Position numbers and translations under genes: made by a program
Assembly: GCA_001897475.1 (NCBI GenBank)
Contig: MKSY01000016.1
Location: forward strand, 1,177 to 65,176
Direction: 5' to 3'
DNA from: Alphaproteobacteria bacterium 43-37
GTDB taxonomy: Bacteria; Pseudomonadota; Alphaproteobacteria; 43-37
DNA: 64,000 bases
In this document: in pieces, positions 51,690 through 52,090 of the stretch
How the letters are laid out: each line of letters begins with the position of its first letter
Position numbering within the stretch: the first letter of the stretch is position 1
Notes under the pieces: model-generated
Seen by the model: the letters and a program-made list of their open reading frames with translations, nothing else
The model's database searches: none
Told to the model about the DNA's origin: nothing

Positions 51690-52090
51690 AGTGTCGCCCC
51701 GCACACCTCCTTTTGTCTTCCCGCACACCTCCTTTTGTCTTCCCGCAACCCTCCTTTTGTCTTCCCGCAACCCTCCTTTTGTCTTCCCGCAACCCTTCTT
51801 TTGTCAATCCCGGACACCCACTTTTGTCTTCCCGCAACCCTCTCTTTGTCTTCCCGCAACCCTCTCTTTGTCTTCCCGGACGCAGATCCGGGACCCAGGC
51901 TTTTTATTGGCCCCCGCTTTCGCGAGGGTGACAAAAAAAAGAGCGAGGACGACAGGCCCTCCCTTTGTCGCCCCGCACCTCCCCTTGTCTTCCCGGACGC
52001 AGATCCGGGATCCAAGCATTTATATGGCCCCCCGCTTTCGCGAGGGTGACAAAAAAAAGAGCGAGGACGACAGACACTCGGCGGGAGCGA
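51690..52090. repeat. Composite intergenic repeat with 8 tandem copies of a 22-bp unit (CCGCAACCCTCCTTTTGTCTTC), two TCCCGGA-N6-TCCGGGA hairpins and two copies of the conserved core shared with 5040-5325
   Basis: Read directly from the sequence. The core CCCAGGCTTTTTATTGGCCCCCGCTTTCGCGAGGGTGACAAAAAAAAGAGCGAGGACGACAG occurs twice. All ORF-track ORFs here (51683-52192) are frame artefacts of the repeat. Confidence 0.85.

Follow-up and report, generated by a model that had tools for sequence, protein, structure and literature searches.

A dispersed cluster of probable SRM-type hairpins with arrays of half-motifs in an uncultured alphaproteobacterium

Analysis of a window of alphaproteobacterial DNA (the whole stretch of 64,000 nucleotides under study) revealed that the region 51693-52095 is, judged from its letters, a real, dispersed, non-coding repeat cluster of the SRM hairpin family described in 2025. 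The repeats of the window probably form an SRM-type cluster belonging to a cross-phylum family that includes the NTS and dRS3 repeats of Neisseria, which makes them candidate targets of Ssn enzymes. SRM is the degenerate Ssn-related motif which Chenal et al. 2025 found across bacterial phyla (PMC11893778). The older dRS3 repeat forms part of the Neisseria Transformation Sequence (NTS), CGTCATTCCCGCGMAVGCGGGAATCYRG (PMC11893778). SsnA, a single-domain GIY-YIG protein of 94 aa, binds the folded motif as single-stranded DNA only and cuts a few bases upstream of it on the sense strand only, and in Neisseria the RNA version is neither bound nor cut (PMC11893778). Such single-strand, sense-strand-only binding and cutting has been published for four Ssn homologues (PMC11893778). 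The present cluster adds an uncultured alphaproteobacterium to the hosts of Ssn-type hairpin repeats. Beyond the founding paper (PMC11893778), it brings inverted pairs of heterotypic hairpins, and tandem arrays in which first halves are in strong, orientation-specific excess.

Tandem Repeats Finder detected a 22-bp period at 51698-51878 (8.2 copies, 89% matches) and a higher-order 118-bp period at 51838-52073 (2.0 copies, 89% matches). The parts of the cluster and its two neighbouring genes are listed below.

51319-51642, + strand: 107-aa gene, left neighbour of the cluster
51693-51869, + strand: eight forward first-half units (GTCTT, 5' arm CCCGCA and pyrimidine tract CCCTCCTTTT), without partner arm and hence without hairpin
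51870-51898, + strand: full forward hairpin F1, GTCT-TCCCGGA-CGCAGA-TCCGGGA-CCCAG; matches the SRM pattern with the preceding T (51869-51898)
51906-51932, - strand: full reverse hairpin R1, GTCA-CCCTCGC-GAAA-GCGGGGG-CCAAT, the "core" of the initial annotation; a near miss of the SRM pattern, with one C fewer than R2
51933-51955, - strand: reverse first-half unit, reading CTGTCGTCCTCGCTCTTTTTTTT on the - strand
51956-51986, + strand: pyrimidine tract and one forward first-half unit (GTCGCCCCGCACCTCCCCTT), the start of the second module, within the 118-bp duplication
51987-52015, + strand: full forward hairpin F2, GTCT-TCCCGGA-CGCAGA-TCCGGGA-TCCAA; a near miss of the SRM pattern at the last flank base
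52024-52050, - strand: full reverse hairpin R2, GTCA-CCCTCGC-GAAA-GCGGGGG-GCCAT; matches the SRM pattern with the preceding base (52024-52051)
52051-52095, - strand: reverse first-half unit (AAAAAAAAGAGCGAGGACGACAG as read on the + strand) and, after it, a degenerate copy (GGAGCGACGTCC), together the right edge of the cluster
52200-56663, - strand: 1487-aa gene, right neighbour of the cluster

Cut at each GTC, the left array yields eight units of 22-23 bp, in the order GTCGCCCCGCACACCTCCTTTT, GTCTTCCCGCACACCTCCTTTT, GTCTTCCCGCAACCCTCCTTTT twice, GTCTTCCCGCAACCCTTCTTTT, GTCAATCCCGGACACCCACTTTT and GTCTTCCCGCAACCCTCTCTTT twice, so that units 3/4 and units 7/8 are identical pairs. The 22-bp unit, GTCTTCCCGCAA-CCCTCCTTTT, comprises the GTCTT flank with the 5' arm and then a pyrimidine tract leading to the next GTC, and the + strand is 79% pyrimidine over 51693-51869. 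The full motif consists of TGTC(A/T), a G+C-rich palindrome of 7-8 bp and NCCA. Set against it, the 22-bp unit corresponds to the first half, with the pyrimidine tract, GTCTT and the 5' arm and no partner arm. To the right of the reverse hairpins, units such as AAAAAAAAGAGCGAGGACGACAG read CTGTCGTCCTCGCTCTTTTTTTT on the minus strand, the same first half reversed. When the GTCWYY sites of 51693-52091 are marked as full or half, the cluster reads >>>>>>>FR<>FR<<.

The elements that the initial annotation had named "hairpin" and "core" are, on alignment, one kind of motif in opposite orientations. The core, with the + strand letters GGCCCCC(C)GCTTTCGCGAGGGTGAC at 51906-51932 and 52024-52050, turns on reverse-complementing into GTCA-CCCTCGC-GAAA-GCGGGGG-(G)CCA, which has the design of GTCT-TCCCGGA-CGCAGA-TCCGGGA-CCCA. 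Each module contains one forward and one reverse hairpin, with the 3' flanks facing each other and 7-8 bp between them. The members of a pair belong to different subtypes, being about half identical by hand comparison after one of them is reverse-complemented. The 23-mer CCCCGCTTTCGCGAGGGTGACAA of the reverse hairpin occurs in 3 copies in the 64-kb window compared to 0.00 expected from 100 shuffles. The third copy of the hairpin and core module (5144-5208) lies in a second site of the window, at 5080-5322, whose reverse array includes 2.3 copies of a 46-bp unit, 98% identical (5213-5319). The GTCWYY string of 5102-5208 is >>FR, and the parts of the site and its neighbours are as follows.

4770-4979, + strand: cold-shock gene, left neighbour
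5080-5143, + strand: three forward first-half units (GTCTCACTGTAACCCTCCCCTT, GTCACTCCGCACCCCTTTT, GTCTTTCCCGCGCGCCTTCTTTT)
5144-5173, + strand: full forward hairpin, GTCT-TTCCCGCA-CTTGA-TGCGGGAA-CCCAG; matches the SRM pattern with the preceding T (5143-5173)
5182-5208, - strand: full reverse hairpin, GTCA-CCCTCGC-GAAA-GCGGGGG-GCCAT; matches the SRM pattern with the preceding base (5182-5209)
5209-5322, - strand: reverse first-half units in an array; the + strand is 82% purine
5434-6360, - strand: hypothetical gene, right neighbour

The initial annotation had described a composite of eight 22-bp units with hairpin and core modules, whose core and an equivalent hairpin recur near 5148-5211, and both the repeat finder and a reading of the sequence agree with it. 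It had also held the open reading frames over the repeat to be artefacts, and this was upheld as well: they overlap on both strands, those tested have no Pfam match and gene callers disagree on them. The interval 51658-52192 is overlapped by eight ORFs of 50 aa or longer, distributed over both strands, and Pfam gave no match for the five repeat ORFs tested; a coding function was rejected on this ground. Four assemblies of the locus, three of them identical in the repeat and one (L030) shorter by two units, disagree in their gene calls: a 58-aa ORF was called in one, a 71-aa ORF in another and none in two. The - strand of the left array presents eight tandem AAAGGAGG motifs resembling ribosome-binding sites, the complement of the pyrimidine units. 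They are likely a by-product of the pyrimidine tract and probably help to attract ORF callers. In addition, units 1-2 (51693-51740) contain CACCTCCTTT, a sequence equal to the anti-Shine-Dalgarno 3' end of 16S rRNA. Such clusters seed false gene calls and break short-read assemblies, two contigs (L032 and L033) ending inside the array, and their recognition improves annotation.

The published SRM search pattern, HGTCWYN(0-2)YYVSBRHN(0-5)WNVSBRGN(0-2)RNCYNB (PMC11893778), matches four of the six window hairpins, at 5143-5173 (+), 5182-5209 (-), 51869-51898 (+) and 52024-52051 (-), compared to 0.18 matches expected from mononucleotide shuffles; the remaining two miss it by one base each. Neither the strict NTS (CGTCATTCCCGCGMAVGCGGGAATCYRG) nor the strict dRS3 (ATTCCC-N8-GGGAAT) has a match within the 64-kb window. 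Strict dRS3 gave three matches in two other loci of the same organism (L038 and L039), and strict NTS was found in none of its loci. When 31 distinct hairpins, taken from this organism and other phyla, were aligned, the GTC and CCA flanks proved invariant or nearly so: the alignment columns G4, T5, C6, C27 and A29 never vary, and C28 is kept in at least 90% of copies. As expected of SRM, the repeat is therefore oriented by non-palindromic flanks, with GTC(A/T) upstream and a cytosine after the palindrome. Six of the eight stem pairs vary on both sides, with 47 doubly changed cells compared to 9.8 in shuffles, and the covariation score of 0.60 (0.19 in shuffles, at most 0.22 with slid partners) indicates compensatory changes in the stems. 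The arms given by parsing with the SRM pattern are out of register with the true stems, and the covariation rests on the aligned set instead. This set was chosen for pairing, which makes its figure of 94% paired circular, and weight is placed only on the variety of pair types.

On its own sense strand the reverse hairpin forms a T.G pair, compared to a C.A mismatch on the opposite strand, which fits the reading of each copy on its own sense strand. Single-strand folding of the composites gave two separate local hairpins. A long-range cruciform between the left and right arrays was rejected, as the composite folds are no stabler than dinucleotide shuffles (z = -1.8, -1.0 and +0.15).

Beyond the window, scanning of metagenome contigs for the core with its A-rich extension revealed five more loci of the same architecture in the same sample. 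The proteins on these five contigs carry the accessions of the two MAG assemblies to which the proteins of the window are annotated, "Alphaproteobacteria bacterium 43-37" (OJV46...) and GCA_017308305.1 (MBN9565...). Altogether, 126 kb of the organism contain at least 10 clusters, with 31 full hairpins and, among the half copies, 55 first and 3 second halves, in keeping with the many clustered copies expected of SRM. The dispersed modular intergenic family that the initial annotation had proposed is thereby confirmed, and the core is not confined to two sites of the genome. All 10 clusters have the layout (first halves)n, forward hairpin, reverse hairpin, (reverse first halves)m, and nine of the 10 adjoin at least one gene 3' end. 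Both clusters of the window lie between convergent genes. The neighbours of the clusters include nuoA, glnA (on both sides), clpX, a glycosyltransferase gene and an OmpA-family gene. In locus L036, glnA (4060-5478) is bracketed by hairpin clusters at 3590-3880 and 5500-5770, which is the repeat-gene-repeat configuration studied for Neisseria transformation. A general role as a marker of island borders, as the initial annotation had suggested, did not hold, since the clusters flank the core genes glnA, clpX and nuoA. As to its narrower claim, that the cluster forms one border of an islet, the right flank is variable, and the repeat as cause of this variability or as delimiter of an inserted element found no support.

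The variability of the right flank comes from the gene tables of two relatives, the only ones found, whose LysR genes are 92% and 80% identical to that of the window. The 1487-aa gene is not beside the LysR gene in either table, nor, in the table of the 80% relative, beside the 107-aa gene; its lack from both neighbourhoods indicates that the right flank is variable. This would fit the older idea, raised for Neisseria, that repeat arrays accompany variable genes (PMC1797815). The gene lies between the repeat cluster and a tRNA-Ser gene (57454-57543), has no Pfam or NCBIfam match, and has a G+C content mostly of 0.42-0.49 compared to 0.37-0.43 in the genes left of it.

The exact 23-mer of the reverse hairpin was found in 27 species representatives of at least six phyla, compared to about 0.02 matches expected by chance in 596 Gb by our own arithmetic. 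The hosts include Acidobacteriota, Planctomycetota, Chloroflexota, Patescibacteria, Bdellovibrionales, and Alpha- and Betaproteobacteria. In about half of the 27 species, a forward hairpin of the ATTCCCGCG type (GTCATTCCCGCG....CGCGGGAATCCA) lies 30-100 nt upstream in convergent orientation, indicating that the heterotypic inverted pair, and not just the single hairpin, recurs across phyla. Such pairs are conserved from Acidobacteriota to Patescibacteria. In the loci from other phyla, 71 full hairpins compare to 28 first and 19 second halves. Abundant half-sites thus characterise this lineage and a few others (L045, L011) and not the family as a whole. Similar spacers between the forward and reverse hairpins were observed in two loci, one from an Acidobacteriota MAG and one from a Dongiaceae (Alphaproteobacteria) MAG, namely L013 at about 3899-3974 and L001 at about 6085-6170 (gccgctccgccgcttgcc and accgctccatcgcttgcc), a likeness that hints at movement of whole hairpin pairs between phyla. 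Viral contigs gave no match for the 23-mer, and a phage origin of the repeat was rejected on this ground.

A search with a consensus of the small GIY-YIG family matched real proteins from many phyla, more than 8000 in number and 94-125 aa long (mostly 95-98 aa), all of them assigned to PF01541. Three such loci were examined, with GIY-YIG (PF01541) genes of 95-98 aa, and all three are flanked by hairpins of this kind, seven in L040, four in L041 and 12 in L045. L045 also contains units in which a first half precedes a full copy, CGTCATTCCCGCCCTCTCTC | CGTCATTCCCGCGAAGGCGGGAATCCA. The hairpins beside these small GIY-YIG genes reproduce the published association between repeat and nuclease. In L041, the 95-aa GIY-YIG gene (2501-2788, annotated Nitrosomonas sp.) is located between hsdR and hsdM of a type I restriction-modification operon, with one hairpin directly upstream and one directly downstream. 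A genome with SRM repeats is expected to encode a single-domain GIY-YIG protein of the cd10448 type (Ssn), whose gene often has the repeat at its own flanks. Searches by regular expression and tblastn found no GIY-YIG gene in the window or the other 62 kb analysed from the organism, and neither a GIY-YIG nor a RAYT gene in the 27 loci from other phyla. The present MAG was absent among the 120 matches listed of the more than 8000.

An Ssn-type enzymatic partner in this organism is presumed by analogy with other bacteria, and on the same ground we propose the following scheme. A full copy would fold when the DNA becomes single-stranded during replication, repair or uptake. An Ssn-type GIY-YIG nuclease would then bind the folded copy and nick a few bases upstream, within the pyrimidine tract; one member of each pair would be read on one strand and its partner on the other. 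The first-half arrays might, with low confidence, arise as by-products of this orientation-specific process or of hairpin collapse. The arrays might then, with similar reserve, lengthen and shorten by replication slippage, given the identity of neighbouring units and the presence of six units instead of eight in one full-length assembly.

The window repeats share with SRM/NTS the oriented 5' flank (T/C)GTC(A/T), a short-looped, G+C-rich semi-palindrome and the cytosines right after it. The repeats of this organism as a whole also share the many copies clustered around genes, the presence of the family across phyla and the placement of the repeat on both sides of glnA (in L036). However, the window copies have no match to the strict 28-nt NTS, and in this organism the full copies are arranged as heterotypic inverted pairs and outnumbered by tandem first halves. 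Neither feature appears in PMC11893778, in whose text "tandem" occurs zero times and half-sites serve only as synthetic substrates, and we found no published work that ties tandem first-half arrays to Ssn. The NIMEs of Neisseria, in which dRS3 (ATTCCC-N8-GGGAAT) flanks RS elements (PMC1797815), are likewise intergenic mosaic arrays around a palindrome of the 20-bp class, with variable array length and a link to the variation of neighbouring genes proposed in the literature (PMC1797815). They differ in having RS elements of 50-150 bp between the hairpins, whereas here there are spacers of 7-8 bp and half-motif units of 20-25 bp, and in their strict dRS3 pattern, which is missing from the window.

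Three other explanations were weighed against the SRM assignment. In the REPIN-RAYT system, the inverted pairs would be REP doublets copied by RAYT, a domesticated IS200-like tyrosine transposase. REP, BIME and REPIN elements of E. coli, Pseudomonas and Neisseria are, like the present repeats, short extragenic palindromes in inverted pairs, forming mosaics clustered at gene 3' ends with many copies per genome (bioRxiv 10.1101/2021.07.10.451892). The clusters described here are multi-copy, intergenic and mostly at gene 3' ends, and inverted full copies less than 130 bp apart agree with the operational definition of a REPIN (bioRxiv 10.1101/2021.07.10.451892). Moreover, the Neisseria repeat ATTCCCGCGCAGGCGGGAATC has been proposed as REPIN-RAYT by Bertels and colleagues (bioRxiv 10.1101/2021.07.10.451892), so that one and the same Neisseria sequence has been assigned to the REPINs and to the Ssn targets, two views that are not mutually exclusive. 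However, two copies of the same REP, inverted and within 130 bp, make one long hairpin in a REPIN, whereas the pairs of the window, inverted and close as they are, consist of two subtypes. Such heterotypic members cannot form the long hairpin, and only local hairpins without excess stability were obtained. The 5' flank here is GTCW, not the GTAG typical of REPs, and tblastn with a RAYT sequence found no match in 126 kb. REP families are usually species- or genus-specific, whereas the 23-mer described here is identical across phyla. A REPIN-RAYT origin is therefore considered unlikely.

We regard as very unlikely that the hairpins act at the RNA level, as terminators or mRNA-stabilising exonuclease barriers in 3' untranslated regions, roles that some E. 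coli REPs have been shown to play. The position of both window sites between convergent genes, the contact of nine of 10 clusters with a gene 3' end, and stems that covary and tolerate G.U pairs would all suit such a role. Against it, terminator-like sites are at chance level (1 compared to 1.5 expected) and no T-run follows the stems; promoter matches over the repeat are also at chance level. No Rfam match was obtained at gathering thresholds or at an E-value of at most 1, save a chance microRNA match (E = 0.11). The oriented flanks and the wobble pair lie on opposite strands in the two hairpins, making one of them antisense in any single transcript, and the SsnA of Neisseria neither binds nor cuts the RNA version (PMC11893778). 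The third explanation, likewise very unlikely in our judgement, sees arrays of binding sites with 22-bp spacing for a double-strand DNA-binding protein, either iteron-like or as the ends of a miniature Mu- or Tn7-like transposon. It draws on the unit length of 20-25 bp, about two helical turns, on the direct left and inverted right units, as in transposon ends, and on the outermost units, which begin with TGTC and finish with GACA. But each unit clearly corresponds to the first half of the hairpin beside it, the number and sequence of the units vary among clusters, and the hairpins are common to phyla without such arrays. In addition, the "cargo" would be just the hairpin pair of 60-65 bp. No target-site duplication flanks either window cluster as read from the sequence, by which miniature Mu- or Tn7-like ends were ruled out.

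The arrays themselves differ between assemblies of the locus. Five contigs of the same strain have identical flanks where covered, and in L030 each identical pair is short of exactly one unit, leaving six units compared to eight. The shorter contig L032 lacks the first of these units and stops at the second. The difference between six and eight units reflects either slippage polymorphism or assembly collapse. Unit 6 (GTCAATCCCGGACACCCACTTTT) resembles the neighbouring hairpin minus its loop and 3' arm, suggesting that some half-units may be collapsed hairpins. As the general origin of the half-units, hairpin collapse was rejected, as it fits unit 6, only partly the common left units and not the right-hand ones; it is one possible origin. 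The 55:3 excess of first over second halves, together with the strictly outward-facing layout, points to an undescribed orientation-specific process. It is tentative, and unlikely in our estimate, that the first-half arrays are not decay and represent either an amplification footprint, with a nick upstream and re-synthesis stopping in the stem, or functional alternative 5' arms. In the latter version, the 5' arms could compete for the single 3' arm of the neighbouring hairpin, resulting in several cleavage registers. SsnA cuts split-NTS substrates in vitro, of which the alternative 5' arms would be a natural counterpart. If the half-site arrays reflect a mechanism of amplification or cleavage, they would offer a sequence-level handle on how such repeats spread.

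Several other features were observed in the window. The thioredoxin/LysR/107-aa block in front of the repeat is directly preceded by the region 45833-49323, which contains a umuD-like gene (Peptidase_S24) and umuC (Y-family polymerase), with a LysR gene between them. On the far side of the 1487-aa gene, a 441-aa ORF at 61109-62434 (-) shows weak, below-cutoff matches to the phage terminase large subunit (TIGR01630, E = 3.8e-08) and adjoins a tRNA-Arg gene (62549-62625); it may represent the remains of a prophage beside a tRNA gene. In addition, three adjacent paralogous genes of 433, 445 and 439 aa are located at 41784-45742 (+), with conserved internal segments at intervals of 1348 and 1318 bp (repeat families D5 and D8).
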